A stretch of DNA of 64,000 nucleotides from Lachnospiraceae bacterium (GCA_017449075.1 JAFSKG010000044.1:4339-68338); one strand, 5' to 3'. Numbered from the stretch's first letter, positions 39,301 to 63,333 are shown. Translations and numbers: made by a program. The notes: generated by a model from the letters alone, not told the origin.

Positions 39301-40329
39301 AAGACCATTACTACTTTCTAAATCCCAAGTATGATCATAACTAGAAGGTGACGCAACTCCATATGGAAGAATATCTATATTAGTAATACTATTTTTATTA
39401 ATACTTGCACCATTTAACCAATTTGGATTTAATATATATTTACCTCCTGCTCCCAATAAAGTATTGCTGCTACTTGTAAGCTCTTCAACTAGTTTTAATG
39501 TATTTGATTGGGTAGATTCATCTACTTCTAAAGTTTCACTTGCAGTAGATAATTTTTCTTCTACAACAAATTTAACAAATTCTGAATCAGTTGCTATTAA
39601 ATTATGATTATTATTTGAAACTTCACTATCAGTAGATAGTTTAGTATTTACTTCGCCATTTTCATTTACATCGCTATCTGTTGCAATATCATTATTTAAT
39701 TTTTCTTCATCAGTTTCATTTTGATCTTCGCTTGGAGCAATGTCAGAAGTAGTCGCTGCGGGCTCGCGGTGCTTCGCCCCTACAGAGTTGCTCTCACATA
39801 CAGAGTCATCTGAATCTTCATTTGTGCTCGTAGAAGTATCATCTACACTTTCACTCGCACCTGTAGAATCAATTGTTCCATCTTCAATGCTAACACTTAT
39901 AGAATCACTCTCTTCTTCTTTACTTATATCGCTACTTTCATTTTTATCACTTTCTAAAATTTCTTCACTATTATCCCTACTATCTATACTATCAATACTT
40001 TCACTATTTTCTACAGTTGATTCTTCTGAATCATTACTATCATTTTCATCATTATCAGAACTTTCGATAGTTGTATCTCCTTCTGGTTCTTCTTCAATAG
40101 GGATTGCAAGCTTCGCCCCTGCAAAGTCGCTTTCCCCTTCGCCATCACCTTCAATCTTTTCTTTTAATAAATCTCCTTCATAATAGTTATGATTATTATT
40201 TCCATTAGCAGTACTTGCACCACTCACCACATCATCTACCGATGAAGCAAAAGTCATCATTCCAGCATTTGAAAACACCATTGAAATGACTAAAAATATT
40301 GCTATTTTTCTTTTTAAAACATTCACCAT
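30394..40329 (-). CDS. Giant (~3312 aa) surface protein: signal peptide, acidic low-complexity region, ~10-11 modules of DUF285/BspA-type leucine-rich repeats, Pro-rich linker, C-terminal cell-wall-binding repeats
   Basis: A 9.9-kb uninterrupted ORF in AT-rich DNA. The start is set at MVNVLKRKIAIFLVISMVFSNAGMMTFASS (ATG 40329, SD GGAGG). Roughly 55-60 units of the type NVTNMSYMFxGCSSL. Modules end in (G)YFT/YLS...NW. The linker is PKPKPVPPEPVPPTPPTPPRPTPGP. The C-terminus is GWKQILGDWYYFGIDGEMY...DGYFVGADGKWI. Confidence 0.85.
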   Translation of the reverse strand: MVNVLKRKIAIFLVISMVFSNAGMMTFASSVDDVVSGASTANGNNNHNYYEGDLLKEKIEGDGEGESDFAGAKLAIPIEEEPEGDTTIESSDNDENDSNDSEESTVENSESIDSIDSRDNSEEILESDKNESSDISKEEESDSISVSIEDGTIDSTGASESVDDTSTSTNEDSDDSVCESNSVGAKHREPAATTSDIAPSEDQNETDEEKLNNDIATDSDVNENGEVNTKLSTDSEVSNNNHNLIATDSEFVKFVVEEKLSTASETLEVDESTQSNTLKLVEELTSSSNTLLGAGGKYILNPNWLNGASINKNSITNIDILPYGVASPSSYDHTWDLESSNGLKGFKNGTNIYIWAADDKDIYLPDDASYLFSDAGDDKFTSLAAINNLDVVYTNETTNMSHMFDGASSILEINAVNFDTRNVTNTSYMFNGCSDLLYIYASDIFNVNNVTDSQNMFNDCLKLRSKEMNGGFDEFIYDSTKIDKERAFCKIAFDIDYGGSLERKYNNKGYFTDNNYRIKGDWFNVIPGGNKDDVITIRFDRYDDPIPSGTRYILPDSYGLALYYDGETITFHPDRDKPICLNGGNEEGYFADFYNLTSFENLTYLDTSHAATFKYAFASLRSLETIDVSKFVTDHITSLYGMFEGCTNLKEINGTGSWNTGWVWLSSYAFKNCRQLKELDLGNLYYHIYYTTSMYEDCINLSSIYIKNKTFDAIAQSSWDMFNNCHSIIGGQGTRLTWGSQTNFWSACIDGRNGRPGFYTEYRLLFRPGWYEPAQSNYDVRNITEIEFLNQGAPAPTTYDYTWELPKSFGLVGYRVGTKVYIHRSNNLELYLPTNIRYLFSNPDPALQFTSLEKIVNLTSLNAIVVDDADHMFDGASNLREIDLSNFFTETLRNTRYMFANCSSLTTIKASDIFTLDEVGNRCENMFEGCTSLVGKDSSGNEGAGTYSRYSESNPKDITCAKLEENYEDKHGYLTDANYNVGKDWNKDINDSVIIDRSNVTKITFIKGGNAPSSYDNTYFIKDGNGLEGYINGTELIVYARNNRRSIYLTNDATNVFKDATSLTEFGSLDIVLTKRTTNMTGLFYNASQLTSVNLSKFDTTRVSTMSYMFYGTSALSNLDLSAFNTSAVSNMSYMFANTSSLTSLNLKNLNTSNVTNMSHMFDGVSALAEIDLSMFDTSKVMDMSYMFKSMTNLENIDLSRFVVSQAPSFEGMFTDMDTITYIDLSTFKDGNDYLTIKNAYKMFDGLDNLEVIDITNFYAYNSNIERMFNNLPRLTTIYCDYNFNMAQGGYDDPIVFSNCPNLSGDQGTTYTARGEQGKRYAKKDKFNGPSELGYFSRPVYRLTKGWHIGSGLNQNQITSVTIYDYNPGASNLYDIPYSNGLKGSVNGTAITIFRPNDDKAMTLGTSAAYVFSGYSSLTSVTGLNVLDSSRLLDTSHMFDGASSLTSFNMNDIDIRNVTNMSYMFNGASSLTNLTFTGANFSNVTNMSHMFCGAFNGTSGSISIDLRGLDTRNVTDMSYMFSGVFPGGGYNITELDIRGLNTSKVTDMSHLFSNAGFRYLSFSGIDTSNVTNMSYMFSGAYRLNNIDLTGFDTHNLTNTSYMFSGCYGLTAIYVNDNFDLSNVTSSENMFDGCASLIGRDIDDIEGTGTYSRYNNSNPKDKTIAIIEENFEGHHGYLSDKNYRLKSNWYNQCGTEGAAYSPENISKIVFASASAVDPTHTLHDDWWQIDGSNGLIGLRDGNIVTIYAPEARTIYASQNSQNLFANFYNSSYKKGFGWNVGGVEFENIDMFDTSKVLNFASAFKYVEFKPNISFETFETSRVSDFSNMFGSGPIAITDTVNPTPITAELQGHNESVDLDITNFDTSSATNMMGMFNNVGFRSITHSENFVNSNVTNIKALFANAYNIDTIDAINFDISSLTGTAMEYLFYGCKEIERLDLSTYDTKNITSYKGLFAYCEALEKVYVSDTWKLIDSTSVEVFTACTSLIGEEGTTKEAIAASSSEAESNTSKYARIDRGNDDINKMGLLSDGNYILRPGWYKYLNDTDNYPASGIGSIKFVPYGEATMSICDYDTVLPNSFGLRACRLDDTVEIYKVINKTIYAYKDSTALFSDSDAYVKSISFSGGMTNLTNVENIHLLDTSKVTSISGMFAGAKSMTNLDVSSLNIDKVEKLDMLFYGMRSLAALDIRSFDTSKITDMSYMFSKIGSGLAGTNYIDLSGLETINTSNVTDMSYMFSESRISDFIFNIDNFDTSKVTNMNGMFKGIYTGGNELSVGSFKTSAVTDFSSMFENVTFTTIYATKHFEVSGTAASNNMFNNATNLKGGNGTSYTGSHRDGSYARIDKDGTPGYFTEDKYFLDVNWYDGIGVNPSEVKKIIFSTPDMSISSNPINVTKLPNSGGLKVYYYLNGSDKIIDVHTTRDVPIYIPEDSSYLFSGTTPERKFTSLVEIVNLDLLDTSKATNMSHMFEDANKIKELDVRYFETASVSDMSYMFNNCSTLRTIKASDSFDVTNVIESTNMFGNCVSIFGRNINRDDITGFDPTKTDKSMAVIEDAYVIVTEVEGVNHGYLANYNYAYSGDIKNWAAFVNLDCREITKITLTYDENDIPTTYDKVGVREDMNGLVTYRINNTELVIYAKKRRPIYTRQSCDHLFGIQAPKLVEFNGLEYLDTRLTLLARWMFEHWKGGPVNIGRFNWHRLRNAERMFCCDDLRGWNFDGADFSSVRYADYMFCPRIDDVTNDAIDLSKTKWSNSLVNAYCMFEDRRKTKKILFPESFSFENLWQGYEMFQDCQEIEEIDFSMLKSTKVSILHLMFNRCYKLKTIYMSKDFGVSNIQYNNDMFNDCTSLVGGNGTRYADKILEDPSNAKGVNYAYIDWGPRSERPGYFTYKSYLLDGNWYQDTYAKSNIEEIKILKYGDATPLTVDAEWDIPNSRGLKGYRVGNKAYISAPKDIDICTAKDASGLFSGFTNLETITNFENVSTISTNNMSHMFDGCVRLATVNVAKVDTTNATDLSYMFNGCSGLEEVILTWFNTASASNMRNMFANCTNLKRIYTTDAFVTTSVTSDSSMFSGCNSLTGQYGTTLASISEIDPSHVYDSTYARLDAESLPGYFIYGTPKPKPVPPEPVPPTPPTPPRPTPGPYNPSGSGGSSGGGSGTGPLINQPLTTINLLTIKSVKDFLNADTCTWNYNPRNDKWQLEGTGVWGKTTALDGFYVIQRIVEGANNPITGNVARSTYYFDAAGNMYKGWIHTIDSKIYFFDNSMTVREGTMATGWKQILGDWYYFGIDGEMYINTMTPDGYFVGADGKWINLNQ
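39758..39783 (-). repeat. GC-rich repeat copy inside the giant CDS
   Basis: The minus strand reads GTAGGGGCGAAGCACCGCGAGCCCGC, which translates as VGAKHREPA. Confidence 0.6.
40100..40143 (-). repeat. GC-rich repeat copy inside the giant CDS
   Basis: The minus strand reads GGCGAAGGGGAAAGCGACTTTGCAGGGGCGAAGCTTGCAATCCC, which translates as GEGESDFAGAKLAIP. Confidence 0.55.
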
Positions 40330-40537
40330 ATGAACCTCCAGAAAAACAAAATGGCTAGCAAGGCTGTCCTTTAATACTACTATCATATATCCTGTTTGCA
40401 AACAAAAAGTGCTACTTGCATATAAATTGTATAATAAATTACTATTTTTTTCAATAAAATTAACTAATTTAAGCCATTTATATAGAAAAAAACATTTAAT
40501 AATGTTATAATTATTTAAATTGTAACTAGGAGTAATT

Positions 40538-41092
40538 ATGGGAAAGTTTAATGTTATAGAAACAGGGATCAAAGATTTAAAGGTCATAAAATTTGACCCA
40601 TTCTTAGATGCCCGCGGATATTTTTACGAATCTTATAACAAAAATGATTTTATCAAAATGGGTATAACTGAAGAGTTTGTGCAGGACAACCAATCTATGA
40701 GTAGTAAGGGCGTACTTCGAGGACTTCATTTTCAGATAAACTACCCTCAATCTAAACTTGTCCGCTGTCTTAAAGGCAAAGTTTTCGATGTGGCAGTTGA
40801 TATAAGAAAAGATTCTCCTACTTATGGTAAGCACTATGGCGTAGAACTCACAGAGGACAATAATACAATGTTTTATGTGCCAAAAAATTTCGCTCATGGA
40901 TTTTTAGTTTTGTCAGACACTGCTATCTTCTCTTATAAAGTTACAGATTTTTATCATCCAAATGATGAAGGCGGCATAATGTATAACGACCCGGATTTAA
41001 ATATTAAGTGGCCAATACCTGATGATCCGAATTTTAAAATCTTGTTATCTGATAAGGATACAAAGCATCCACTATTTAAAGATTTAAAATAG
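40538..41092 (+). CDS. rfbC: dTDP-4-dehydrorhamnose 3,5-epimerase
   Basis: 184 aa with RmlC cupin motifs (FxDxRGxFxE, LRGLHFQ, VFDVAVDIRKDSPTYG, FAHGF). SD is AGGAG. Confidence 0.9.
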   Translation: MGKFNVIETGIKDLKVIKFDPFLDARGYFYESYNKNDFIKMGITEEFVQDNQSMSSKGVLRGLHFQINYPQSKLVRCLKGKVFDVAVDIRKDSPTYGKHYGVELTEDNNTMFYVPKNFAHGFLVLSDTAIFSYKVTDFYHPNDEGGIMYNDPDLNIKWPIPDDPNFKILLSDKDTKHPLFKDLK

Positions 41093-41100
41093 GGCTCGTA

Positions 41101-41133
41101 AAAAATGGATGGGTTTTCACCATCCATTTTTTT
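41101..41133. terminator. Bidirectional terminator between rfbC and the pseudouridine synthase gene
   Basis: AAAAA-TGGATGG-GTTTTCA-CCATCCA-TTTTTTT. Confidence 0.8.
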
Positions 41134-42058
41134 ATCTTATTATTTCATTTATATCATCCGGTATCTTCGCATCAAACCTCATCATCTCATGAGTTATCGG
41201 ATGGTTCATTAGTAGTTCACTTGAATGTAACGCCTGCCTTTTTATTAGTGTGTAATCAGGATTATATAGGAAGTCGCCTATAATCGGAAAACCAATGTGT
41301 TTCATATGAACTCTTATTTGATGAGTTCTACCCGTTAGCAATATGAATTTGCAAAGAGACACATCATAATTTTCTATGTATCTTATAGCAAATACTTTTG
41401 TAATTGCCACTTCACCATCTGGAGCTACGCACCTTTCTATGGTAGAGTCGTCAACCCTTTTTATAGGAGAGTCAATTACCAGTTCGAGATCAGTTAGTTC
41501 ATTTAAATGTTCTATTGATTTGAGGTTTGGGTTTATGTGAAGAGCATTGTAGACATTACCTTTTACAACACCGAGATAGGATCTTTTTATTAAATTTTTT
41601 GCTATATGTTCTGAAAATATTGCTGCAGAGAATTTATTTTTTGCTATAAGGCATACACCACTTGTATCTCTATCAAGTCTTGTTATTGGTCTATATACAA
41701 AGTTTCTATTGTTGAAGTGAGCTGCGAGTGCATTTCCGAGTGTATTTAAATGATTGCCCTGAGATGGATGGATAGGCATGTCAGCAGGTTTATTTACGAC
41801 GATCATATCTTCATCTTCAAATAGTATCTCATATTTCAAGTTTGGATTTGGTTCTATATCAGAACTCTCATCTTCAATAATATCAATTTTTATTTCTTCT
41901 CCAACTGACAATATATGGAACATATCAAGACCTAGAGTTTTCTTTATATGCTTTATGAGTTCTTGAGAAAAACCTTGAGCGGTCAAAAAATCTTTGAGGT
42001 ATTTGCCATCAAAGTTTCTTGGTACCACATATAATAATTTTCTCACACTGCTTTCCAT
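41132..42058 (-). CDS. RluA-family (RluD-like) pseudouridine synthase
   Basis: Catalytic motif TRLDRDTSGV, with GRTHQIRVH near the C-terminus and an N-terminal S4-like region. Confidence 0.85.
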   Translation of the reverse strand: MESSVRKLLYVVPRNFDGKYLKDFLTAQGFSQELIKHIKKTLGLDMFHILSVGEEIKIDIIEDESSDIEPNPNLKYEILFEDEDMIVVNKPADMPIHPSQGNHLNTLGNALAAHFNNRNFVYRPITRLDRDTSGVCLIAKNKFSAAIFSEHIAKNLIKRSYLGVVKGNVYNALHINPNLKSIEHLNELTDLELVIDSPIKRVDDSTIERCVAPDGEVAITKVFAIRYIENYDVSLCKFILLTGRTHQIRVHMKHIGFPIIGDFLYNPDYTLIKRQALHSSELLMNHPITHEMMRFDAKIPDDINEIIR

Positions 42059-42069
42059 ATATTTGTTGA

Positions 42070-42097
42070 GTGGGGCTCTGCAAGAATTCGCCCCTAC
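42070..42097 (-). repeat. GC-rich repeat copy that fills most of the 41-nt spacer
   Basis: The minus strand reads GTAGGGGCGAATTCTTGCAGAGCCCCAC. It is a GGGGC/GCCCC hairpin lying directly after the stop of the upstream gene. Confidence 0.6.
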
Positions 42098-42099
42098 TA

Positions 42100-43179
42100 T
42101 TATTTTTTCTCTTCTTGATAGAATTCTACTTCTACTTCATCTTCTTTTGCTCTATCTTTATCATCACTTTTAATTTTTTCATTTTCACTACTCTTAACAA
42201 TACTATTATCTAACTCAATCTCATTTTTCTTACCAAACAATGCCTTAAATATTGCTGAGATTATCACAATCAACAGTATTGCCACAAGTCCAAGAATAAT
42301 CCATGGTATGTGAGTAAATATATTTGCTCCAAGTCTCATAACAAAGAGCTTTGCCTCAGTTAGATTTTTCTTTAATTGTTTTATAAGCGTCTCTTTAGAG
42401 AAATCATCTTCTGATACTTGAGGTTCAGTCAAATCTTTTACTTCTGATATATTGATATGAACAGTTGAGTATGTCACTTGCTTATCATATCTATTAAGTC
42501 TTCTTGTGATATTTTCTATCTCTGTTCTTACAGACGAAAGTTTATCCTCAACCTTTATCATCTCTTCTACAGTTTTAGCCTTCTTAAGCATAGCATTGAG
42601 ACTTTCCTCTTCTATCTTAAGGCTCTTAAGTCTTGACTCAGTATCAGAATATTCATCAGTAATATCAGATATATTTTCTTGTCTAAATGTTACATTTAAC
42701 TTATCTCCAATTTTACTTAAAAACGAATCAAGTTTAATGGCCGGTATTCTTACATTGAAATTTGCATTCTTTCTATAATTTTTATCATTGATATTTCCAC
42801 TATCAACATAAGAACTATCAATAATGCCATCAAAACTTGCCACATAAGACTTTAGCCATTCTATCGACTCATCAAATGTCTTTGTCTCTGTATTTAAATC
42901 TACAGTTTTTATTATTTTTCTATCACTTGTACTGCCACTACTATCAGCCGTAGTATATTTTGCTCCATCAAAGGTCATCTCCTCTACCGCAATGTCATTC
43001 ACAGCAGCCATCTTAGCATTTGCCCTTCCAAATCCTGCCCCAGTATACATTGCTGCCGCAGTAGTCTCTGTTCTAAGCATCATAGACTGAGTTGAAGAAT
43101 TATTGACTCCACACGAAATTAAAGTTAAAATAGTAATAGCACAGATTAACAATGAAAACACTTTTCTAAATTTTTTCAT
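42100..43179 (-). CDS. DUF4349-like lipoprotein (coiled-coil, C-terminal TM helix)
   Basis: Lipobox signal MKKFRKVFSLLICAITILTLISCG, a coiled-coil centre and a C-terminal TM helix IPWIILGLVAILLIVIISAIF. The start is set at the ATG at 43179, behind SD GGAGG. Confidence 0.6.
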   Translation of the reverse strand: MKKFRKVFSLLICAITILTLISCGVNNSSTQSMMLRTETTAAAMYTGAGFGRANAKMAAVNDIAVEEMTFDGAKYTTADSSGSTSDRKIIKTVDLNTETKTFDESIEWLKSYVASFDGIIDSSYVDSGNINDKNYRKNANFNVRIPAIKLDSFLSKIGDKLNVTFRQENISDITDEYSDTESRLKSLKIEEESLNAMLKKAKTVEEMIKVEDKLSSVRTEIENITRRLNRYDKQVTYSTVHINISEVKDLTEPQVSEDDFSKETLIKQLKKNLTEAKLFVMRLGANIFTHIPWIILGLVAILLIVIISAIFKALFGKKNEIELDNSIVKSSENEKIKSDDKDRAKEDEVEVEFYQEEKK

Positions 43180-43201
43180 GATTACCTCCAAGGAGTTTTA
43201 T

Positions 43202-43903
43202 ATGAATAAAAAATTTAACAATATATTTTTAATATTATTTTCACTTTCAATAATATATTTTATGCTGTTTGCCGCTTTTTATCTAGTATGCTTTATAGAT
43301 AAGGATGGGCTATATAAACTGATAATTAAAAATGAAACTTACAAAAACTTGCCATTTACTCTATCCTATTTTGATCTAAAAAACCTATCAAGAGAACTCA
43401 TGCAGTACATCTCCGGAAAACTTCCATTTCTTGAAACCAAAGTTACAATTAACAATGTGCTTACTGAATTTTATAGTCTTAGGTCAAAAATACATATGGC
43501 TGATGTTAGAAATCTAATAATAAATTTTAGAAATGTTTCCTTCGCTGCAATTATAATATGTATCTTTTCATTATTTAAAGTTCAAAAACTTGATGACCCT
43601 ATAAAAAAACTGAAGTCAACATATCTCAAGACGCTATCGGTTATTGCTATCTTTCTTATCGCCCTAATCATATTTGCAAGTAATAACTTTGATGTATTCT
43701 TTACTAAATTTCATGAAACATTATTTACAAATGACTTGTGGTTGCTTGACCCAAATGAAGACTATATCATTTGTCTACTACCAGAAAAAATATTTATGAC
43801 TTATGGCCTAAGGATTGCTATAACTATGCTTATTGCTTTGGTTCTTCCTTACCTTTTTCTTCAAATTTTGTCAAGAATTCAACTTCGCCAAGAAGCCAAA
43901 TAA
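43202..43903 (+). CDS. TIGR01906/DUF1461-type integral membrane protein (Lit-like family, tentative)
   Basis: 233 aa with 4 TM helices and a conserved-looking segment FHETLFTNDLWLLDPNEDYIICLLPEKIF. The start is set at the ATG at 43202, behind SD AAGGAG. Confidence 0.5.
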   Translation: MNKKFNNIFLILFSLSIIYFMLFAAFYLVCFIDKDGLYKLIIKNETYKNLPFTLSYFDLKNLSRELMQYISGKLPFLETKVTINNVLTEFYSLRSKIHMADVRNLIINFRNVSFAAIIICIFSLFKVQKLDDPIKKLKSTYLKTLSVIAIFLIALIIFASNNFDVFFTKFHETLFTNDLWLLDPNEDYIICLLPEKIFMTYGLRIAITMLIALVLPYLFLQILSRIQLRQEAK

Positions 43904-44837
43904 CGCCTCTAAATCTTCTGCCAGGAAGTGGCTCTCCATCCAAATCTTTCTCATTGATCATGAGATTAAATTGTAATCCCATAGTATCTACTCTCATCTC
44001 AACCATGGTCTCATTAGTATATTGGTTTACTTTTCTATTTACGCTTATAATCTCTGCAACGATCTGATACTTGTCGCATTCTATCCCATATGGCACAAGG
44101 CTTGTCTCAACTATAGAATACAAATCTTCATTCTTCAATCTACTCTCTTGATATCCGATTGGATTTCTTGGAAGCTTTATGCCAATGCCAATACTTATAG
44201 GTTTACCGCCAATGCCTTCAGAAAAATCATCCATATCACCGATTATTCTTGTAGTAATTGGCGAGTCATCGTAATCTTCATCGTCTTCGTCATCATCAGC
44301 ATCATCATATTCATAACTTGGATTTATCTTACTTTTATCATTGAACTCATTCCCTGATATTTCTTTCTTGTCGATAGGAAGTATAATTCTTCCACTCACA
44401 GAAAGAGCAGACAAATATATTTTATCAATTTTAATATCACTGATTTTATGTTTCTTAATCAAGCTATTGTACACATTTCCATTTGTGAGGTAAAAAATAA
44501 GTGCTATACCAAGTCTATAGTCATCAATAATACCTGCATATGATTCTTTATCACTATGTTTTTCTATAGTACATTCTTGAATCAAAGTATAATCATATCC
44601 TTTAAGATATGGGTAATAAAAATCAATGAGTGCTAATTGATCCCTCTCCTGCTCTCCAATCACTGATATGCCTGCGCCATTACAAACTGGCAAATTATAC
44701 TGCCCACAGAGTCTCATATCTTGTGTAATATAAGTGCTTATTAAATTTTCATCCTTCAAATTTTCCTTGAAGAAATCGTCAACCTGCGATTTCCTTACGA
44801 ATTCGCTAAAGCCAACTGCTCTTAAATATTTGTGCAT
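43830..44837 (-). CDS. Conserved hypothetical protein with an acidic central tract (possibly DUF3881-like)
   Basis: 335 aa starting MHKYLRAVGFSEF, with the tract DDADDDEDDEDYDD. No catalytic motif was recognised, and the family name is from memory only. Confidence 0.45.
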   Translation of the reverse strand: MHKYLRAVGFSEFVRKSQVDDFFKENLKDENLISTYITQDMRLCGQYNLPVCNGAGISVIGEQERDQLALIDFYYPYLKGYDYTLIQECTIEKHSDKESYAGIIDDYRLGIALIFYLTNGNVYNSLIKKHKISDIKIDKIYLSALSVSGRIILPIDKKEISGNEFNDKSKINPSYEYDDADDDEDDEDYDDSPITTRIIGDMDDFSEGIGGKPISIGIGIKLPRNPIGYQESRLKNEDLYSIVETSLVPYGIECDKYQIVAEIISVNRKVNQYTNETMVEMRVDTMGLQFNLMINEKDLDGEPLPGRRFRGVIWLLGEVEFLTKFEEKGKEEPKQ

Positions 44838-44857
44838 AATTTCCTCTTATATATATA

Positions 44858-46823: not shown

Positions 46824-46830
46824 GATTCCT

Positions 46831-46924
46831 CCGGGCTCGCAATGCTCGCCCCTACAAATTCAGTTATACAATCATTTGTTGGTCATATACCTCACTTAAG
46901 AAAACAATTGGAGCAGTGAGGTAT
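46831..46924 (-). repeat. Composite repeat: GC-rich core plus a hairpin whose loop matches part of the 48850-49035 palindrome
   Basis: The minus strand reads GTAGGGGCGAGCATTGCGAGCCCGG (46831-46855). The hairpin pairs ATACCTCAC (46887-46895) with GTGAGGTAT (46916-46924). The loop segment TAAGAAAACAATTGGAGCA (46897-46915) matches TAAGAAAATAGTTGGAGCA (48863-48881) at 17 of 19 positions. Confidence 0.6.
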
Positions 46925-46932
46925 AAAGCTAA

Positions 46933-47706: not shown

Positions 47707-48821
47707 TATTTACTCTCTTTTGGCACTTGATAAGACTTTATTTTCTTATAGCACTCATTGTAATTTTCTTCAAAGCGTCCTAGATCCTTATACAACTCAT
47801 ATTTATCTATTTCATCAAGATTTGGGAATATCGCTTCATCCTTTAATATTTCTTCTCCATCTCTATCTCTTATCAAGTCAATAGTTTTTAAATTTGCTAT
47901 TCCATAATGCATTTCATCATAATTCATAAGTGCGATTTCTGGATCAAGCATGAAGTCAATCCATTTTTTTGCAAGTTCCTTATGCCTTGCACCCTTTGGT
48001 ATAACCCAAGCATCTATAGTAAAGTTCACACCTTCTTCTGGTAAGATGTATTCATATTTATAGTTTGACCCATTCTCTTTTATGTATTCCACTTCTCCAC
48101 TATACATAACTGCTATGCTGCCATTACCTGCAACCATTTTATCTCTAAGGTCATCTATCATATATGAATTGACTAAATGCTTTTGTGCAATCAAATCTTC
48201 AGTCGCCTTATCTAGCTCATCTTGTTTTAATGTGTTAATTGAAAAATTATTTTTCTTAAGTCCCACCATCATCAAATCTCTCATAGCATCCTGCATCAAA
48301 AGTTCGCCTTTATAATCTTCATTCCACATATCATCCCACTTCTTTGGATATGGCACACCCAAATCGTCAAGTTGAGTTTTATTGTAAATCATGCCAAGTG
48401 TTGAATGAACATATGGGACTACATAAGAATTATTTTTATCAAACGAACTTATAATTTTCAAAATTTTTGGATCAATATTGTTGTAATTAGGTAATTCTCT
48501 TATATCATATTCATATAGCATACCTTTATTAATCATCTTTTCTATCATATAGTCAGTCGGACACAAAACATCATACATCCTCCCATTTGACGAAACAACT
48601 GCATACATTTCTTCATTTGTGTCAAATTCATCATATACAACTTTGCAGTCGTACTTTTCTTCAAACTTGCCGATTACATTTTCATCCAAATAAAGACCCC
48701 AGTTGTAGACAAAGAGTTTGTTCGTCTGATCATCCTCTCTGTTGCCACAGCTAGATGCTATAAATATGGTTAAAAGTATTACTAAAAATATTTTTAATTC
48801 TTTTTTCATTAAATACGACAT
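47706..48821 (-). CDS. Spermidine/putrescine-type ABC transporter substrate-binding lipoprotein (PotD-like)
   Basis: Lipobox LTIFIASSCG and PotD/PotF-like features (VYNWGLYLDE, VPYVHSTLGMIYN). No SD lies before either candidate ATG (48821 or 48809). Confidence 0.78.
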   Translation of the reverse strand: MSYLMKKELKIFLVILLTIFIASSCGNREDDQTNKLFVYNWGLYLDENVIGKFEEKYDCKVVYDEFDTNEEMYAVVSSNGRMYDVLCPTDYMIEKMINKGMLYEYDIRELPNYNNIDPKILKIISSFDKNNSYVVPYVHSTLGMIYNKTQLDDLGVPYPKKWDDMWNEDYKGELLMQDAMRDLMMVGLKKNNFSINTLKQDELDKATEDLIAQKHLVNSYMIDDLRDKMVAGNGSIAVMYSGEVEYIKENGSNYKYEYILPEEGVNFTIDAWVIPKGARHKELAKKWIDFMLDPEIALMNYDEMHYGIANLKTIDLIRDRDGEEILKDEAIFPNLDEIDKYELYKDLGRFEENYNECYKKIKSYQVPKESK

Positions 48822-48849
48822 TATTATTTATTCACAATTAATATTCTAT

Positions 48850-49035
48850 CAACTATTTCGCATAAGAAAATAGTTGGAGCAAGTTCCACATTTTCTACAA
48901 ACTTTGCTAAGTTTGAACCTTAGAACTTTAGCACTGTCTGAGCGAAGCGAGTTTGCAAAGTTCTTGGTGAAAACGAGCAAAGGCTTGTATAGAAAATGTA
49001 GGGTTTTGCGACCTATTTTCAATGCGAAATAGTTG
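48850..49035. repeat. 186-bp imperfect palindrome (arms ~90 nt, about 75% complementary by eye) with hairpin termini. A MITE/REP-like element or a structured RNA.
   Basis: Perfect 14-nt termini: CAACTATTTCGCAT (48850-48863) and ATGCGAAATAGTTG (49022-49035). Matched inner blocks are GAAAATAG, ACATTTTCT, TTTGCT and AGAACTTT. The centre contains GCGAAGC. Each end is itself a small hairpin (CAACTATTT/AAATAGTTG). Confidence 0.7.
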
Positions 49036-49056
49036 TAAAAGTATAAATTTTGATGA

Positions 49057-50868
49057 TTATTCGGCATCGAGTTTGAGCACCGCCATAAATGCCGACTGCG
49101 GTATCTCCACCGCCCCAAACTGTTTCATTCGTTTCTTTCCTTCTTTTTGTTTTTCAAGAAGCTTTTTCTTTCGGGTTATATCACCACCATAGCATTTCGC
49201 AAGCACGTCTTTCCTAAGAGCTTTTATTGTTTCTCTTGCTATGACTTTGCCACCTATTGCAGCTTGAAGAGGGATTTCAAAAAGCTGCCTTGGTATTTCT
49301 TCTTTCAGTTTCTCGCACATCTTTCTTCCGCGCTCTTCAGCAGAGCCTCTAAACACTATGAAAGATAGTGCATCGATGTTCTCTTTATTTACAAGAATAT
49401 CAAGCTTACAAAGATTTGATTTTTGATAACCTTTTAAATTATAGTCAAGTGATGCATAGCCCCTACTTCTTGACTTTAAGGCATCAAAAAAATCATATAT
49501 TATCTCATTTAATGGCAATTCATATTTTAATACTGCTCTATTTTCTTCTATATAATCTATATTTAAATAGACACCTCGTCTCTCCTCGCAAAGTTTCATT
49601 ATGGCTCCGATATAATCTTTCGTTACCATAATCTCTGCATTTACAATCGGCTCTTCCATATGATCTATGTAAGATGGGTCTGGCAGATTCGACGGATTAG
49701 TGAGTATCTCCATCGTGCCATCAGTTTTATACACATGATATACAACCGATGGTGATGTAGTCACCAAATCTAGATCGAACTCTCTCTCCAATCTTTCTTC
49801 TATGACATCAAGATGTAAAAGTCCTAAGAAGCCACATCTAAATCCAAATCCAAGTGCAACCGAAGTCTCAGGTTCATACTGAAGTGAAGCATCATTTAAT
49901 TGTAATTTTTCAAGTGCATCACGAAGGTCAGGATATTTCTGACCATCACTTGGATAAAGACCACAGTACACCATTGGTGTAACTTTTTTATAACCAGGTA
50001 ATGCCTTTGCTTCATTTCCAACCTCTGTCACTGTGTCGCCAACACGAGTATCTTTTATACTTTTAATAGATGCTGTAATATAGCCAACATATCCAGGATA
50101 AAGTGCATCACATGGTATGAATTTACCTGCTCCAAATACTCCAACTTCCACAGTTTCAAACGAAGCACCTGTAGCCATCATTTTAATTTTAGTTCCTTTC
50201 TTTACTATACCATTAAATACTCTAACAAATACTATTACACCTTTATACGAATCATATATAGAATCAAATATCAATGCCTGAAATGGATCTTCCTCTTTTC
50301 CATTTGGTGGTGGTATATGCTTTACAATTGCTTCAAGTACTTCGTGAACATTTTTTCCTGTCTTCGCGGAAATCTTTGGCGCAATACTGCAATCTATACC
50401 GATCACATCTTCAATTTCTTTACAAACTCTATCAGGTTCTGCAGAAGGTAAGTCTATCTTATTGATAACTGGCACTATATCAAGATTGTGATCAAGTGCA
50501 AGATATACATTTGCAAGGGTCTGCGCTTCTATCCCTTGTGCTGCATCAACTACAAGAAGAGCTCCTTCACATGCTGCAAGTGACCTACTTACTTCATAAG
50601 TGAAGTCAACATGTCCAGGAGTATCAATCAAATTAAATATATACTCTTCGCCATCATCTGCTTTATAAGTGATACGAACAGTTTGTGATTTGATTGTAAT
50701 TCCTCTTTCTCGCTCAATGTCCATGTTATCAAGTACTTGCTCTTTCATCTCTCTGTCTGTGAGAGTTCCTGTAAGTTCAAGTATTCTATCAGCCAAAGTA
50801 CTTTTTCCATGATCGATATGGGCGATGATTGAAAAATTCCTTATTTTATTTTGGTCAATCTTCTGCAT
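49057..50868 (-). CDS. lepA: Elongation factor 4 (LepA)
   Basis: Motifs [25 protein letters not shown] and NKID, with the LepA-specific C-terminal domain. Confidence 0.95.
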
Positions 50869-50895
50869 ATTTATAAAAAGGGGCTCGCAAGCCCC
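50869..50895 (-). terminator. Rho-independent terminator after pgk, abutting the lepA start
   Basis: GGGGCT-CGCA-AGCCCC (50880-50895). On the minus strand it is followed by TTTTTAT, and the lepA ATG comes 11 nt later. Confidence 0.7.
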
Positions 50896-50913
50896 TTCAA
50901 TTTTTATTTACAA

Positions 50914-56831: not shown

Positions 56832-56842
56832 ATGTCTTCTAT

Positions 56843-58111: not shown

Positions 58112-58123
58112 ATTGTGTGATAA

Positions 58124-58504: not shown

Positions 58505-58540
58505 AATTTATCTCCTTTTTAATATAACATACTACCTAAT

Positions 58541-58559
58541 GGGCGAGTTACACGAGCTC
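58541..58559 (+). repeat. Diverged GC-rich repeat copy in the ade-ridA spacer
   Basis: GGGCGAGTTACACGAGCTC aligns with GGGGCGAGC-ATT-GCGAGCCC. It abuts the ade stop codon. Confidence 0.4.
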
Positions 58560-60328
58560 TAGAATATCGCATCTACAACTTTCTGCTCACTTACTCTTAC
58601 TAAACCTTTTGGTATAATCTTAAGTTCTGGTATAACAGGGAGTTGCATAAATGCAAGAGTCATGAATGGATCGATATCTCTCTTGACCCCTAAATCATAA
58701 TATGCAATATCTTTTAATTTTTCAAGATTGCTAATAACATAATTTTCATCATTTTCTGTCATGAGTCCTGCTACTTCAAGTTTTAAATCTCCAAGCAATA
58801 CGCTATCACAGACTATCGCAATTCCACCATTGTTATTTTTTACTGTATTGACCGCCATTGCCATGTCCTTGTCATTGACACCTACAACTATTATATTGTG
58901 TGAATCATGACCTATACTTGAAGCAATAGCACCCTGTCTTATGCCGTATCCTTTTAAAAATCCTATGCCAATATGTCCTGTATTGTGATGCCTCTCAACA
59001 ACTGCAATCTTAGCAATGTTTCTGTCTATGTCAACGCCATATGGCATATCTTTATTTTCTATAATATCAAGAGTTGATTCTTTAGTCAAAACTCCACCAG
59101 GTATTAACTCAATAACTCTCTCTTTATTACCAACTTTATTAATTTCAAAATCTGATTCTTTTACACTATCTAAATTAAATGAATGGTATACTCTACTAAA
59201 TACTTCCTTGTCCAAGGTATTCATATCCTCTGAACTTTTATGAAGAGTCCTATTGTATTCTGATACTTTCTTTCCAGCCAAATAGCAAGAATGAATTTTA
59301 AATGTCTCAAGATCATCAAGAACAATTAAGTTAGCCATATATCCAATTCCGATTGCGCCCACATGACCTAACCCATAGTGAAGTGCCGGATTTAGACTTC
59401 CCATCTTTATAGCTCTTATAGGGTCAGCACCTTTTGCAATTGCTTTTCTAACAATTCTATCTATATGTCCTTCATCTATAATTGTGTCTGGATGACTGTC
59501 ATCAGTCGCAAGCATACATCTATTGTGATATGGTGCTTTAAAAAGATCCATAAGTGCATCTAAGTCTTTACAAACTGTTCCCTCGCGAATTTGTATCCAC
59601 ATTCCTCGATCAAGTTTTTCCATTGCCTCTTTTATATTAGAACACTCATGGTCGCTTGAAATGGCAGATGTTAAATACGCATTTAATTGTTTTCCATAAA
59701 CACTTGGTGCGTGACCATCTATTAGTTTTCCTGCATTAATGGCATCAACACATTTTTTTACACACTGTTCATCAGAATGTATCAAACCATATGCATTCAT
59801 CATCTCAGCAAGCCCATATATTCTGTCATTATCATATAGTGGTTTTATATCATCAGCAGTTAAAGTTGCACCCGACTCATCAAGAGGCGTCGATGGGACG
59901 CAAGATGGCACCATTACTCCTACAAATAAATCCAAATCTTCAGTCATCTTAAGTATGTAATTAATTCCATCGATTCCTGCTACATTTGCGATCTCGTGTG
60001 GATCAACAATCACACCAGCTGTACCATGGCATACAACCAAATCCCTAAAGCTTCTCGGACTAATCATTGCTGATTCAAGATGTATGTGACTATCTATAAA
60101 TGATGGTACTACAACTTTATTTGTACAGTCCACCTCTACTTCACCCTCATACTCACCTATGCCCACTATATGCCTTCTACAGATGGCTATATCAGCTACT
60201 TCTATTCTCTCAGAAAACAAATTAACAAAACTTGCATTTTTAAATACAAGATCTGCCTTACGTTCACTCATCGCAACTTGCACTCTGTCTTTGAGACGCT
60301 CTTCAGTTGTCATGAAATATCTTTTCAT
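58559..60328 (-). CDS. ade: Adenine deaminase
   Basis: 589 aa with metal motif PSFIDSHIHLESA and a two-domain Ade architecture. Confidence 0.88.
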   Translation of the reverse strand: MKRYFMTTEERLKDRVQVAMSERKADLVFKNASFVNLFSERIEVADIAICRRHIVGIGEYEGEVEVDCTNKVVVPSFIDSHIHLESAMISPRSFRDLVVCHGTAGVIVDPHEIANVAGIDGINYILKMTEDLDLFVGVMVPSCVPSTPLDESGATLTADDIKPLYDNDRIYGLAEMMNAYGLIHSDEQCVKKCVDAINAGKLIDGHAPSVYGKQLNAYLTSAISSDHECSNIKEAMEKLDRGMWIQIREGTVCKDLDALMDLFKAPYHNRCMLATDDSHPDTIIDEGHIDRIVRKAIAKGADPIRAIKMGSLNPALHYGLGHVGAIGIGYMANLIVLDDLETFKIHSCYLAGKKVSEYNRTLHKSSEDMNTLDKEVFSRVYHSFNLDSVKESDFEINKVGNKERVIELIPGGVLTKESTLDIIENKDMPYGVDIDRNIAKIAVVERHHNTGHIGIGFLKGYGIRQGAIASSIGHDSHNIIVVGVNDKDMAMAVNTVKNNNGGIAIVCDSVLLGDLKLEVAGLMTENDENYVISNLEKLKDIAYYDLGVKRDIDPFMTLAFMQLPVIPELKIIPKGLVRVSEQKVVDAIF

Positions 60329-60354
60329 AATTTCTCCACAAATGAAGCACTATC

Positions 60355-60393
60355 AATTTATAACAAAATTGGATGGGCATATAGCCCATCCAA
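60355..60393 (-). terminator. Rho-independent terminator after the permease gene
   Basis: TTGGATGGGC-ATATA-GCCCATCCAA (60369-60393). On the minus strand it is followed by TTTTGTTAT. Confidence 0.8.
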
Positions 60394-60402
60394 AAAACAA
60401 AA

Positions 60403-61785
60403 CTAAATCATTATATACTTTAGTATAAATAGTAATGCTATAACAAATAACGTAGGTGTAATTTTCTTTCCGTTTCCAGAAACTAAATTGATAACTACAT
60501 AAGAAATTATACCAAATGCAATACCTTCAGAAATACTATAGAAGAAAGGCATAGCAAGAATTGCAAGGAATGCTGGAACTGATTCAGTCGCATCATCCCA
60601 AGGAATGTCTACAACGTGCTTCATCATGAGATATCCAACGATAACAAGTGCTGGAGCAGTTGCAAATGAAGGTATAACGCTGAAAATTGGCCAGAAGAAC
60701 ATTGCCACCAAGAACAATATTCCTACTGTAATAGCAGTAAGTCCTGTTCTACCACCAGCTTCAATACCAGATGCTGATTCTACGAATGTAGTAACAGTTG
60801 ATGTACCACAAACTGCACCTACTGTTGTACCAACTGCATCTGCAAAAAGAGCATACTTAACATTGTGGAGACGTCCTTTCTCGTTTAACATACCGCCAGC
60901 TTTTGCACAACCTATAAGTGTACCAAGAGTATCAAATATATCTACGAACAAGAAAGAAACTACAACTACTATGAAATTGATTAAACTTATAGACTTTATC
61001 TCTCCAAAACCTTTCACAAATGCACCAAAGGTTGGCGCCATAGATGCTGGCATTGCAAATACACCACTAGGTATTACAGAATAGAAACCTGCTTCTGGAT
61101 TTGGTCTATAAATTCCAAATATTTGTGCAATAATTCCTAATACCCAAGTAATAAGAATTCCAAGAAGTATATTTCCTTTTACTTTTTTGTGAACTAAGTA
61201 AGCTGTAACAACAATTCCAATTAAGCAAAGAACTGCAGAGCAAACTTGTAAATCCATTACATTGTACTCTTTGTCAAATGCTGAATGGAAAGAAATAAGT
61301 GAAACAACAGTACTATCACTTGCTTGTAATACTTTAGCATTAATAAGTGCAATAATAGTAATGAAAAGTCCGATACCTGCTGAAACTGCACTCTTAAGTG
61401 AAAGTGGGATAGCCTCAAACATAGCCTCTCTTACATTTACAACTGACAATAAAAGGAATATAACACCCTCTACAAATACAGCTGCAAGTGCAACTTGCCA
61501 TGAAACTCCAAGTCCAAATACAACTGAGTAAGTAAAATAAGCATTAAGACCCATACCAGCTGAAAGTGCAAATGGGAAATTACCAATTAATCCCATAAGG
61601 AAACATGCAATTGCTGATGAAACACCAGTAGCGCTAAAGACTGATCCTGCATCCATACCAGATGCTGATAAAATGCTTGGGTTAACTGCTAAAATATAAG
61701 CCATTGCCATAAAAGTTGTTAATCCAGCAATTAACTCAGTTCTTACATCTGTGCCTTTCTCTTTAAGTTTGAAAAGTTTTTCCAT
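60403..61785 (-). CDS. NCS2/AzgA-family purine permease (adenine/guanine/hypoxanthine)
   Basis: 460 aa. The N-terminus FKLKEKGTDVRTELIAGLTTFMAMAYILAVNP is typical of PbuG/AzgA-type permeases. Confidence 0.88.
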   Translation of the reverse strand: MEKLFKLKEKGTDVRTELIAGLTTFMAMAYILAVNPSILSASGMDAGSVFSATGVSSAIACFLMGLIGNFPFALSAGMGLNAYFTYSVVFGLGVSWQVALAAVFVEGVIFLLLSVVNVREAMFEAIPLSLKSAVSAGIGLFITIIALINAKVLQASDSTVVSLISFHSAFDKEYNVMDLQVCSAVLCLIGIVVTAYLVHKKVKGNILLGILITWVLGIIAQIFGIYRPNPEAGFYSVIPSGVFAMPASMAPTFGAFVKGFGEIKSISLINFIVVVVSFLFVDIFDTLGTLIGCAKAGGMLNEKGRLHNVKYALFADAVGTTVGAVCGTSTVTTFVESASGIEAGGRTGLTAITVGILFLVAMFFWPIFSVIPSFATAPALVIVGYLMMKHVVDIPWDDATESVPAFLAILAMPFFYSISEGIAFGIISYVVINLVSGNGKKITPTLFVIALLFILKYIMI

Positions 61786-61876
61786 AGAAACCCTCCTAAA
61801 ATATTTTTATAAGATTACTCACATTCTTTAGGAATCTATAGTCTTCCTAAAAAAAGAGCAAAATTATACATGATTA

Positions 61877-61885
61877 ATTATAACA
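61877..61885 (-). promoter_or_regulatory. Extended -10 (TGTTATAAT) for the permease operon
   Basis: The minus strand reads TTTATA-N17-TATAAT with a TGn extension, about 90 nt upstream of the ATG. Confidence 0.4.
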
Positions 61886-61908
61886 TTTTTCTATCATAAT
61901 ATAAAGCA

Positions 61909-63333
61909 CTAAAAACTCTCATGCAACTTTCGTTTAATAAATTTTCCGGTATTTTCAACTATATTCTTATCTTCGTCTACAACCTGTCTTCCTCTAAGAA
62001 AGACTTTTTCTATCTTTCCCTTAAGTTTCTTTCCTTCAAATGCGCAGTAGTCTGATTTAGACACTTGACTCTTTATGCTTAAAACAGTCGTCTTTTTTGG
62101 GTCTATTATAACAAAATCTGCATCATAACCTTCTTTTATAAATCCTTTTCTGTCCCAAAGTCCAAATAGTCTTGCTGTATTTTCAGAGAGCAGCTCACAC
62201 ATTCTTTCTATTTTTAGTTTCTTGTTTTGACATGCATCAAAAAGTAAAATGCCTCTTTGTTCCACTCCATTTAAGCCACCTGGTATTTTCCTAAAATCAT
62301 CTTTGCCGAGTGCTTTTTGCTCTTTAGTAAATGAGCAGTGATCAGTAGAAACTATATCTATACTTCCATCATTGATTGCTTTCCATAGAGCTTTAATATC
62401 TTTCTTCTTTCTAATTGGTGGTGCACATACATACTTACTCGCTTCATCAAATTTTTTCTTATAGACACTATCATCAAAGTATAAATACTGAGGACATGTT
62501 TCCCCATAAACTTTATATCCCTTTTCTTTAGCTATCTTAACTTCGTTAAGTGCTTCTTCACAAGTAACATGAACTGCCAAAAATGCTGCGCTAGTTATAT
62601 GCGACATATAGGCAAGTCTATTTACACAATCAGCTTCTGCCACAGCTGGTCGAGTTAAAGCATGCGAAATAACTTTTTTATTATCATCGCCAACTACATT
62701 AGCTCGAAGTTCTTTTATTATTCCATCATTTTCACAGTGAACTCCTGTTATGCCTTTACACTTTGCAATTTCTGTAAGTGCATCAAGTAATTTATCATCA
62801 TCAAGTTTAATGTCATAAGTAGTATATAATTTAAATGAAGTTACACCCTCTTTTATCATTTCCTTAATTTCAGAACGAACTTTATCATTCATTTCTGATA
62901 TAGACATGTGAACTCCGAAATCACAACTCACACCATCTTTTGCTTTGTCAAGCCAATTTTTAAGTCCTTGCTTTAAAGTCTCTCCGTGATACTGCGTTCC
63001 ATAATCTATTATAGTTGTTGTGCCGCCAGATACCGCTGCCTTAGTTCCACTTGCAAAATCATCAATAGTAGTAGTGCCTGCAACTGACAAATCAAAGTGA
63101 GTATGTCCATCTATGAAGCCTGGGAAAATATATTTACCTTTGCAGTCAATAACTTGTACGCTTGAGTTCTGCGATCCCTTTGGCGAAGCCAATCGTAGGG
63201 GCGAGCTTTGCGAGCCCGGCACTTTTATATTCTTTGCAACTCTCTTTATCTTCTCGCCTTCAATTAAAATGTCAGCAACAAAAGACTTTTTGCTATTAAC
63301 TACTATTCCGTTTTTTAACAATATTTTTTTCAT
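61909..63333 (-). CDS. D-hydantoinase/dihydropyrimidinase-family amidohydrolase carrying a 20-codon GC-rich insertion
   Basis: Motifs PGFIDGHTHF, carboxylated-Lys region TSFKLY, and STDHC. The insertion PGSQSSPLRLASPKGSQNSS lies between the first beta-strands. Confidence 0.8.
   Translation of the reverse strand: MKKILLKNGIVVNSKKSFVADILIEGEKIKRVAKNIKVPGSQSSPLRLASPKGSQNSSVQVIDCKGKYIFPGFIDGHTHFDLSVAGTTTIDDFASGTKAAVSGGTTTIIDYGTQYHGETLKQGLKNWLDKAKDGVSCDFGVHMSISEMNDKVRSEIKEMIKEGVTSFKLYTTYDIKLDDDKLLDALTEIAKCKGITGVHCENDGIIKELRANVVGDDNKKVISHALTRPAVAEADCVNRLAYMSHITSAAFLAVHVTCEEALNEVKIAKEKGYKVYGETCPQYLYFDDSVYKKKFDEASKYVCAPPIRKKKDIKALWKAINDGSIDIVSTDHCSFTKEQKALGKDDFRKIPGGLNGVEQRGILLFDACQNKKLKIERMCELLSENTARLFGLWDRKGFIKEGYDADFVIIDPKKTTVLSIKSQVSKSDYCAFEGKKLKGKIEKVFLRGRQVVDEDKNIVENTGKFIKRKLHESF
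63160..63219 (+). repeat. GC-rich repeat inserted in-frame in the hydantoinase gene
   Basis: The plus strand reads ...TTGGCGAAGCCAATCGTAGGGGCGAGCTTTGCGAGCCCGG. It is exactly 60 nt (20 codons) and strongly GC-rich against an AT-rich flank. The core differs at only 1 position from the copy at 46831-46855. Confidence 0.7.

Follow-up and report, generated by a model that had tools for sequence, protein, structure and literature searches.

Repetitive extragenic palindromes (REPs) of the GTAG kind, such as E. coli REP/BIME, Pseudomonas REP/REPIN and Stenotrophomonas SMAG (PMC3733652, PMC6006769), carry a 5′ GTAG at the foot of a 20–30-nt GC-rich hairpin. The stem is imperfect and keeps a conserved unpaired purine motif, found also as the unpaired GA residues of P. 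aeruginosa GTAG-24 (PMC3733652), and sub-families differ from each other by compensatory stem changes. The copies are mostly intergenic, between co-directional or convergent genes (PMC3733652) and close to the upstream stop codon. The genes of the tyrosine transposases that go with REPs (RAYTs), which are usually single-copy (PMC5581495), have inverted REPs on both sides, the arrangement called a REPtron, and in-frame copies inside genes are occasional, being documented in Opitutus, in Rickettsia and inside some RAYT genes (PMC3733652, PMC6006769). In biochemical work on the enzymes of E. coli, S. maltophilia and Marinomonas, TnpA_REP cleaves and rejoins single-stranded REPs and needs both the GTAG motif and the imperfect hairpin (PMC3333891, PMC8266576). 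Here we describe a family of GTAG-headed REPs in a 64-kb stretch of DNA from a Lachnospiraceae bacterium (JAFSKG010000044.1, positions 4339–68338; hereafter the window) and in related loci, numbered with the prefix L, from metagenome-assembled genomes (MAGs).

The new family shares the GTAG head, the imperfect hairpin with its purine motif and compensatory stem changes, the mostly intergenic placement and the in-frame copies inside genes, and in relatives also the RAYT genes with inverted REPs. On every feature tested it appears, from sequence comparison, to fit the GTAG REP/REPtron kind, the RAYT link being seen in relatives. It departs from described GTAG REPs in its host, a ~33% GC member of the Bacillota (Firmicutes are not listed in PMC3733652, and Clostridia appear in PMC5581495 only as carriers of Group 1 RAYTs), in head-to-tail tandem arrays that are common in Lachnospiraceae and rare elsewhere (PMC3733652), in having roughly 15–25% of the Lachnospiraceae copies inside open reading frames (ORFs), and in its short RAYTs, which score just below the NCBIfam cutoff. 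Rickettsia palindromic elements (RPEs), to which the original prediction had likened the repeat, resemble it in behaviour only, through a low-GC genome and in-frame translated insertions into protein genes. RPE-4 and RPE-6 have been equated with REPs of the CGTC superfamily without a dedicated RAYT, and RPE-1 is a longer palindromic insertion (PMC3733652); the present units, unlike RPEs, have a GTAG tag instead of CGTC and differ in length, host, sequence and associated enzyme. The likeness to REPs drawn in the same prediction is upheld by the GTAG head, the hairpin and the RAYTs of relatives, and that to BOX and Correia elements is not, boxA/B/C modules and terminal inverted repeats being absent. 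With IS200/IS605 hairpins and TnpA the system would share single-strand hairpin recognition by an HUH/Y1 enzyme, and in ~90% of copies the hairpin lies on the lagging-strand template; unlike IS200/IS605 elements, however, REPs do not enclose a transposase between two different ends, and RAYTs form a distinct clade that is not a multi-copy insertion sequence (IS). A literature search on REPs or RAYTs in Lachnospiraceae and on this sequence found no prior description. What is new is thus the REP sequence in Lachnospiraceae, as the prediction of an undescribed family had it, whereas GTAG-tagged REPs with RAYTs, including intragenic copies, were already well known as a kind (PMC3733652, PMC6006769). 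Nearly all work on REPs and RAYTs has dealt with Proteobacteria, and the very name of REPs calls them extragenic; in a clade of uncultured, low-GC rumen Lachnospiraceae they are abundant, arrayed and often translated.

The REP unit and its copies in the window

The window has a GC content of ~33%, and its minus strand, the G-rich one, encodes nearly all of the genes. The recurrent GC-rich motif first noticed there is a real family of GTAG-headed REP elements. When up to one mismatch is allowed, the decamer GTAGGGGCGA has seven matches in the window (0.5 expected), and GYAGGGGCG has six exact ones (0.06 expected). When the reported copies are aligned with their flanks, only ~25 nt are common; the flanks are unrelated and terminal inverted repeats are absent. 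Read on the GTAG strand, the unit of 23–30 nt consists of GTAG + GGGC + GA(A) + NN + 3-nt loop + NN + GA + GCCC, forming a hairpin closed by a 3-nt loop. Its lower stem (GGGC/GCCC) has 4 bp and its upper stem, which is variable, 2 bp; between the two is a conserved purine internal loop, in which GA or GAA faces GA. The lower stem is essentially invariant across copies. GTAG is invariant in the model seed alignments, one GCAG in A2 excepted, and is kept in all four full window copies, and in the decayed ones it is lost or mutated to GCAG, GAAG or TAAT.

The hairpin is conserved by covariation. A regular-expression census of the related loci gave 222 copies, in which the upper stem is GC:GC (133), CC:GG (32) or GT:AC (27) in most cases, and 199 of the 222 are fully Watson–Crick or wobble paired. 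Among 28 distinct seed sequences, 95.8% of the cells are paired, with 11 double-sided changes; none of 500 shuffles reaches the observed covariation, and controls in which the structure was slid are 19–52% paired. The 150 best model matches reach 99.1% paired cells and 47 double-sided changes, although this alignment was fitted to the model, which flatters the structure. The GCGAAGC heptamer, a mini-hairpin that the original prediction had placed in four copies, is present at three REP-related places (39771, 40110 and 63183), the fourth (48942) lying in an element resembling a MITE (a miniature transposable element with inverted repeats). As a conserved feature of the family it was rejected: it shows no covariation, 11 of the 28 sequences are unpaired in it, and the CC and GT variants abolish it.

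A covariance model, R1, built solely from copies in other genomes and run on the window without filters, finds four full copies, at 39757–39786 (−), 46830–46858 (−), 63192–63220 (+) and 42070–42100 (−). Together with three decayed copies they make seven REP-derived sites in the 64 kb. The strongest match (R1 E 2e-13) is a full REP of the GAA type, GTAGGGGCGAAGCACCGCGAGCCC, at 39757–39786 on the minus strand. It lies inside the gene of a giant DUF285/LRR surface protein, called from 40329 with the ORF ending at 30394 (−), and is translated in frame as VGAKHREP in the acidic low-complexity N-terminal region of the protein. Another predicted copy in this gene (40100–40143) proved to be only a degenerate REP, GCAGGGGCGAAGCTTGCAATCCC, at 40100–40122 (−): 12 of 13 bases of the head are kept, R1 gives no significant match (it scored below E = 10), the segment GGCGAAGGGGAAAGCGAC precedes it, and it is read as AGAKLAIP in the same frame as its neighbour. 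Its assignment as a REP is tentative.

Two full copies on the minus strand are intergenic. The variant GTAGGGGCGAA-TTC-TT-GCA-GAGCCCC at 42070–42100 (R1 E 3e-6), with one upper-stem mismatch, starts 2 nt past the TAA of a DUF4349 gene and is upstream of an RluA-family gene. A GA-type REP, GTAGGGGCGAGCATTGCGAGCCC, at 46830–46858 (R1 E 4.6e-9) lies 75 nt past the stop of the TauE gene, and its 3′ end abuts a GGAGG Shine–Dalgarno (SD) sequence, itself 6 nt upstream of the ATG of the SDR gene. The repeat had been thought to supply part of this SD, but GGAGG is outside the repeat consensus. As predicted, the core of this copy (46831–46855) differs by a single base from that at 63195–63219 (25 nt, 96% identity). 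The latter belongs to a full GA-type REP, GTAGGGGCGAGCTTTGCGAGCCC, at 63192–63220 on the plus strand (R1 E 1e-7), inside a D-hydantoinase ORF, and is preceded at 63160–63191 (+) by the 3′ half of another REP, TGCGATCCC, and a 16-nt linker, TTTGGCGAAGCCAATC, which make up a fragment of a head-to-tail array, antisense in the gene.

A decayed copy that had been overlooked, GAAGGGGC^TTGCGAGCCCC followed by T5, is found at 50878–50901 (−) in the pgk–lepA spacer. R1 gives it only E 2.7, and its flanks align with those of full REPs at this position in L126, L127 and L128. The head reads GAAG in place of GTAG, an internal deletion has removed 6 nt, and a perfect 8-bp hairpin with a T-run is now formed; the modelled DNA fold is at −9 kcal/mol (z −3.8), a terminator scan flags the site, and the relic resembles an intrinsic terminator by these predictions. 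The diverged form proposed at 58541–58559 is indeed a headless decayed REP on the plus strand, GGGCGAGTTACACGAGCTC, of the form GGGCGA-N7-GAGCCC. That pattern, with at most one mismatch, has three matches in the window against 0.03 expected, this copy among them, and its upper stem is the compensated GT:AC variant; GTAGGGGCGAGTTACACGAGCCC, a REP variant found in related loci, also bears on it. It is antisense to the genes, with a one-base overlap (58559) with the TAG stop of an adenine deaminase gene, and the orthologous spacer of L092 holds no REP. The adjacent GTAGATGCGA is no part of the REP: by comparison with the L092 orthologue it comprises just C-terminal codons of the deaminase, and the plus-strand headless hairpin itself is supported. 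The other proposed diverged form, 48998–49013, was discarded (R1 E = 1.5), being inside the MITE-like palindrome, in whose other copies its GTAGGG-like bases are not conserved.

RAYT genes and copy turnover in related genomes

Species-representative genomes scanned with the pattern GTAGGGGCGA-N4-8-GCGAGCCC gave at least 115 loci. Among the matches listed, ~80 are loci of low GC content, and the few rumen Lachnospiraceae or Clostridia MAGs that carry them are RGIG6119, RGIG9190, RGIG9292, UBA3866, UBA3633, RUG816, two SRR1208 bins and one SRR1091 bin; viral contigs gave four stray matches, consistent with chance. The window and these motif-retrieved low-GC loci add up to 735 kb, in which R1 has 290 matches with E ≤ 0.001. 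The unit is very abundant in related MAGs, often in head-to-tail arrays with periods of 26, 30, 39 or 47 nt (47 nt in L087, 26 nt in L035, 30 nt in L126), and L046 has opposed arrays. At several UBA3866 sites (L017) the REPs are preceded by a linker, GGCGAAGCCAATC (once AATGGCGAAGCCAATC). The orthologous stretches of these rumen Lachnospiraceae or Clostridia MAGs are 72–82% identical to the window. The exact LepA sequence of the window was found on metagenome contigs only, and these contigs are of the window's own strain; L001–L006 likewise are of the same strain as the window (99.9–100% identical) and thus uninformative for presence or absence. The window proteins are Firmicute-like, namely LepA, a PotD-like binding protein, a YmfI-like SDR, adenine deaminase, D-hydantoinase and the DUF285/LRR/choline-binding surface protein of 3311 residues.

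RAYT-like ORFs adjoin REPs in L114, L046, L098 and L126. They were obtained from the fetched loci with a motif and with tblastn using approximate probes, a screen that yields leads only, and the matches were then checked against NCBIfam and Pfam. The proteins, 142–172 amino acids long, match NCBIfam NF047646 REP_Tyr_transpos at E 1e-16 to 5e-22, with IS200 far weaker (E 2e-4 to 2e-3), and Pfam Y1_Tnp (PF01797). L126, the closest syntenic relative, which was found via its SDR protein (92% identical), has a complete arrangement in the spacer between lepA and the solute-binding protein (SBP) gene: directly past the lepA stop there are three tandem GTAGGGGCGAAGCACCGCGAGCCC units, a 144-amino-acid RAYT and then an inverted REP. 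The tandem 24-mer is identical to the window copy at 39760–39783. The only PDB match of this RAYT is E. coli TnpA_REP (4ER8), with PNHIH aligned with PEHMH and YINENP with YIYINP, and among protein-database entries JGI has given the name RayT to homologues of it. The RAYT gene of L114 is bracketed by inverted GTAGGGGCGGATATCATCCGCCC units and that of L046 by inverted arrays of the window-type REP, and in L098 a GTAGGGGCGAGCACTGCGAGCCC unit lies ~15 nt upstream of the RAYT start codon. RAYTs beside imperfect-hairpin REPs are 62% identical to each other and 30–34% identical to the RAYT flanked by perfect-hairpin REPs; two REP types with two RAYT lineages fit the rule of one RAYT per REP family (PMC6006769). 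The L046 RAYT gene (6901–7331, minus strand), from SRR12081292_bin.91, the genome with the largest arrays seen, contains an in-frame TAA (ICT* where relatives have ICTK), which is either a pseudogene mutation or an assembly error.

The motif copies are, with high probability, non-autonomous REPs of the GTAG superfamily that a cognate RAYT would mobilise. The REP would fold as a single-stranded DNA hairpin, be recognised together with its GTAG, and be cut and rejoined by the RAYT (TnpA_REP), an HUH/Y1 enzyme related to the IS200/IS605 transposases. Units would multiply as singletons and as head-to-tail arrays, with REP plus linker as the repeating unit, and the arrays would expand, contract and decay, slippage perhaps contributing to their growth and shrinkage. 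The window copies would then be mostly single copies or decayed relics, three of them in operon spacers, a headless fourth at the adenine deaminase stop, and the rest tolerated in frame in genes, within a loop of the D-hydantoinase and the low-complexity linker of the surface protein.

Several points weigh against this interpretation. Single REPs fold no better than shuffles with nearest-neighbour DNA parameters (z −0.7 to +0.3), so that the support for the hairpin comes from covariation, which in a multiplying element may stem partly from a few master copies. The related loci were retrieved by the motif itself, which biases copy densities upward. The RAYT-like proteins score 61–78 bits, just under the NCBIfam cutoff of 80, and regular-expression and tblastn searches of the 64-kb window found no RAYT gene, so that the link to the enzyme comes through homology to relatives. 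Finally, classical REPs usually move as an inverted dimer (REPIN), and neither head-to-tail arrays nor frequent intragenic copies are typical of them.

Orthologous spacers differ in their copies. Across one ~20-kb stretch in which gene order is conserved, the R1 count is ~15 for L126, five for L128, three for the window, one for L127 and zero for L129. One and the same position can be empty or filled, as the comparison of relatives had been proposed to reveal: past the SDR stop, the spacer of the window (CATAGGTTATCATGG) lacks a REP, and that of L126 has two. The TauE–SDR spacer has one REP in the window, three REP-like units in L126, one in L128 and none in L129, and in L127 it has other, degenerate GTAG-headed hairpin sequences; the DUF4349 spacer has one unit in the window, four of mixed types in L126, and none in L127 and L129. 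At the last site the window copy 42070–42100 is orthologous to GTAGGGGCGAATGCTTGCAGAGCCCC in L126, with ~30 nt of 3′ flank matching almost base for base, and L126 has three further units at this site. Such relatives, with about 0, 1, 3, 5 and 15 copies over the same 20 kb, make a natural series for REP gain, decay, terminator co-option and unit-wise protein indels.

The reading that comes nearest differs only on present-day activity. It is possible, though the less favoured of the two, that the REPs of this genome are immobile relics whose cognate RAYT has been lost, the copies decaying or being co-opted as terminator or stability hairpins. Three of the seven window copies are decayed, one of them turned into a clean terminator-like hairpin; the window has three significant copies, against ~15 in L126, the syntenic relative that carries a RAYT; and the lepA–SBP spacer, the site of the REPtron in L126, holds a MITE-like element in the window. 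Against this, the window covers only 64 kb of the genome, and a RAYT, usually single-copy (PMC5581495), may lie elsewhere. Two window copies are one base apart though 16 kb distant, which suggests a fairly recent common origin, and a near-identical hydantoinase that differs by one whole unit (see below) indicates recent array dynamics, which slippage without a RAYT could also produce.

Copies between and inside genes

A rough ORF call places 61 copies inside ORFs and leaves 172 as intergenic, although some of these ORFs are artefacts of GC-rich arrays. Where genes were called on both sides, 109 copies are between co-directional, 10 between convergent and 7 between divergent genes, and between co-directional genes GTAG is on the sense strand in 100 cases and antisense in 9. 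The hairpin is on the G-rich strand, the lagging-strand template, in ~90% of copies. With a single exception among the usable cases, genes run in the direction that the GC skew indicates, so that a transcription bias and a replication-strand bias are inseparable here. To judge by position, spacer copies that follow a stop codon or precede a ribosome-binding site would be transcribed as hairpins and probably act as 3′-end or stability elements. That the whole family is a structural or regulatory hairpin selected by the host (a terminator, mRNA stabiliser or protein-binding site) and spread by its function without a transposase is nevertheless improbable. The sense bias, the placements directly past stop codons and ahead of an SD, and the copy with a terminator-like T-run are what such selection would leave, but most copies lack a T-run, orthologous spacers function without REPs, copies lie in frame and antisense inside conserved enzymes, arrays run up to a dozen or so units, and REPs flank RAYT genes in inverted orientation.

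The prediction that some copies are translated is borne out by two genes of the window. The D-hydantoinase ORF (61909–63333, minus strand) has, relative to its solved homologues (PDB 1k1d and 1yny), an 18-residue insertion exactly at the repeat. The in-frame 18 codons, at about 63169–63222, read ...PGSQSSPLRLASPKGSQN... on the minus strand, and their DNA comprises the partial REP, the 16-nt GGCGAAGCC linker and the full REP, antisense to the gene. This linker is unique in the window and also precedes REPs at several UBA3866 sites. Among 53 hydantoinase orthologues the same site ranges from no insertion (456–460 residues) to ~3 units (494 residues, ...GSHSSPLRKASSEGSQCSPLRKASSVGSHSSPLR...), with decayed remnants in L079 and L092. 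One protein, P0001, identical to the window hydantoinase over most of the N-terminal half, differs from it by exactly 13 residues, or 39 nt, which is one REP + linker unit. The second gene is that of the surface protein, whose ORF contains the copies at 39757 and 40100. The REP heads VGAK and VGAS recur in the acidic linker in both the window and L126, the L126 orthologue having several VGAS/VGES REP-head repeats around the region equivalent to 40100. This protein (30394–40329, minus strand; 3311 residues) is secreted and has LRR segments, 13 DUF285 repeats and, at the C-terminus, choline-binding repeats; the direct-repeat families of the window are dominated by repeats internal to it, and the length of the orthologue varies greatly among strains and relatives.

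In related MAGs, REPs are found inside RecG, MnmG (two MAGs), MnmA, HisS, a TagH-like ATPase, a thiamine pyrophosphate enzyme, ManC and a VirB4-like ATPase. Of the six frames, just one is closed by a stop codon that the GTAG head makes; the other five are open, and all five are used by the observed translations. The intragenic share of copies, roughly 15–25% and including housekeeping genes, is unusually high for REPs. It is very improbable, however, that the similarity goes back to a repeated peptide module (VGAKHREP, GSQSSPLR) under selection as protein, its non-coding copies being derived from former coding fragments. VGAK and VGAS are repeated in one frame in the surface-protein linkers of the window and L126, as that would require, but the DNA unit is read in at least five frames or orientations (VGAS.., RRGEHCEP, GSQCSPL, GLAKLAPT, RARSARPY), about three quarters of the copies are intergenic, and the covariation keeps base pairing and not codons. 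The regular ~24-nt hairpin repeats of L087, with intervening segments of ~23 nt, could also recall a CRISPR-like locus of which the window copies would be stray repeats, an idea with next to no probability, as the segments between the repeats either recur (in L087 two types alternate) or are missing (in the 26-nt arrays of L035), a CRISPR array would need wider spacing, copies also stand alone here and there in genes and spacers, with single copies only in the window, and the genes found beside the repeats are RAYTs, no search having been aimed at cas genes.

One REP core is common to three distant lineages, Lachnospiraceae, Thermomicrobiales and Acidaminococcales. Thermomicrobiales MAGs (L030, L015, L088 and L103; ~70% GC) contain clustered CGTAGGGGCGACGCTTGCGAGCCCGGCCGCCGC units, whose core almost equals the Lachnospiraceae GTAGGGGCGAACGCTTGCGGAGCCC variant, and in L030 the units flank a RAYT at 3671–4120 that is ~31% identical to the L126 RAYT. 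The GTAG-23 family of Thermomicrobium roseum (Chloroflexi) is clustered in blocks within CCGSSCC...GGSSCGG palindromes (PMC3733652). Being clustered, flanking a RAYT and fitting that palindrome description, the Thermomicrobiales units probably are this published family, compared by its description. They are unlike the Lachnospiraceae family in genome composition (70% GC), in phylum and in the divergence of the RAYT. In L058, an Acidaminococcales MAG, a RAYT-like ORF adjoins the REP motif. The near-identical core beside RAYTs in Thermomicrobiales and the RAYT-like ORF beside the core in the Acidaminococcales MAG raise the rather doubtful idea that a REP/RAYT lineage entered low-GC rumen Lachnospiraceae by horizontal transfer and became a generator of protein-length variation, through head-to-tail units of 39 nt, a length divisible by three, which would grow and shrink in number in frame within housekeeping enzymes and make up the low-complexity linkers of surface proteins. 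If this were true, REP arrays would contribute significantly to coding polymorphism, possibly under selection, and would be the Firmicute counterpart of the Rickettsia RPEs. For annotation, REPs explain GC-rich islands, spurious small ORFs and length-variable enzyme loops in these MAGs, and the compact RAYT (142–146 amino acids) with its simple 23–24-nt substrate is suited to the study of GTAG and G·A internal loop recognition.

Neighbouring features and the MITE-like element

The RluA-family gene next to the copy at 42070–42100 (41132–42058) is co-oriented with the DUF4349 gene in the window and L126 and inverted in L127, L128 and L129, where a bidirectional terminator (41100–41132 in the window) ends on the other side of it. 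In L126 the gene is bracketed by inverted REPs, at 14911–15011 on the plus strand and 15977–16039 on the minus strand, and recombination between inverted REPs may possibly have inverted it. The pgk–lepA spacer of L126 (3876–5296) has, bracketed by REP-containing sequence, an extra 165-residue ORF and an rve-family integrase/transposase that are not in the window. This spacer is a hot spot: REPs and an IS are found in it, and the next spacer along has the REPtron.

Other searches of the window returned no Rfam match at gathering thresholds and no tRNA or tmRNA gene, and two other REP types, type B (GGCGGAT...ATCCGCC) and type C (GGACGACA...TGTCGTCC), were not found in it. The sequence GTAGGGGCGG, the head of the perfect-hairpin REP type without its hairpin, is present at 24581–24590 (−) inside ORF 24402–25985, near the C-terminus of its 527-residue product; with ~0.5 one-mismatch matches expected, it may be due to chance or be a REP-head fragment.

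The MITE-like element is a family separate and distinct from the REPs. In the window it occupies 48840–49048, in the lepA–SBP spacer, as an imperfect palindrome of ~205 nt with terminal inverted repeats CAACTATTTCGCAT...ATGCGAAATAGTTG; a MIR821 match in a permissive Rfam scan of 48700–49200 falls on this long palindrome and was rejected as spurious, and no transposase was identified for the element. Matches of 75–85% are found in the related MAG loci L113, L101, L114 and L069. A related full-length element with other terminal repeats (TACCTCACT...AGTGAGGTA) lies in the TauE–SDR spacer of L126 and L128 and in the lepA spacer of L129. In the TauE–SDR spacer of the window, at about 46885–46926, only its two ends are kept (TATACCTCACT|GCTCCAATTGTTTTCTTAAGTGAGGTATA), a remnant that, from its sequence, looks like an internal deletion of the MITE-like element.

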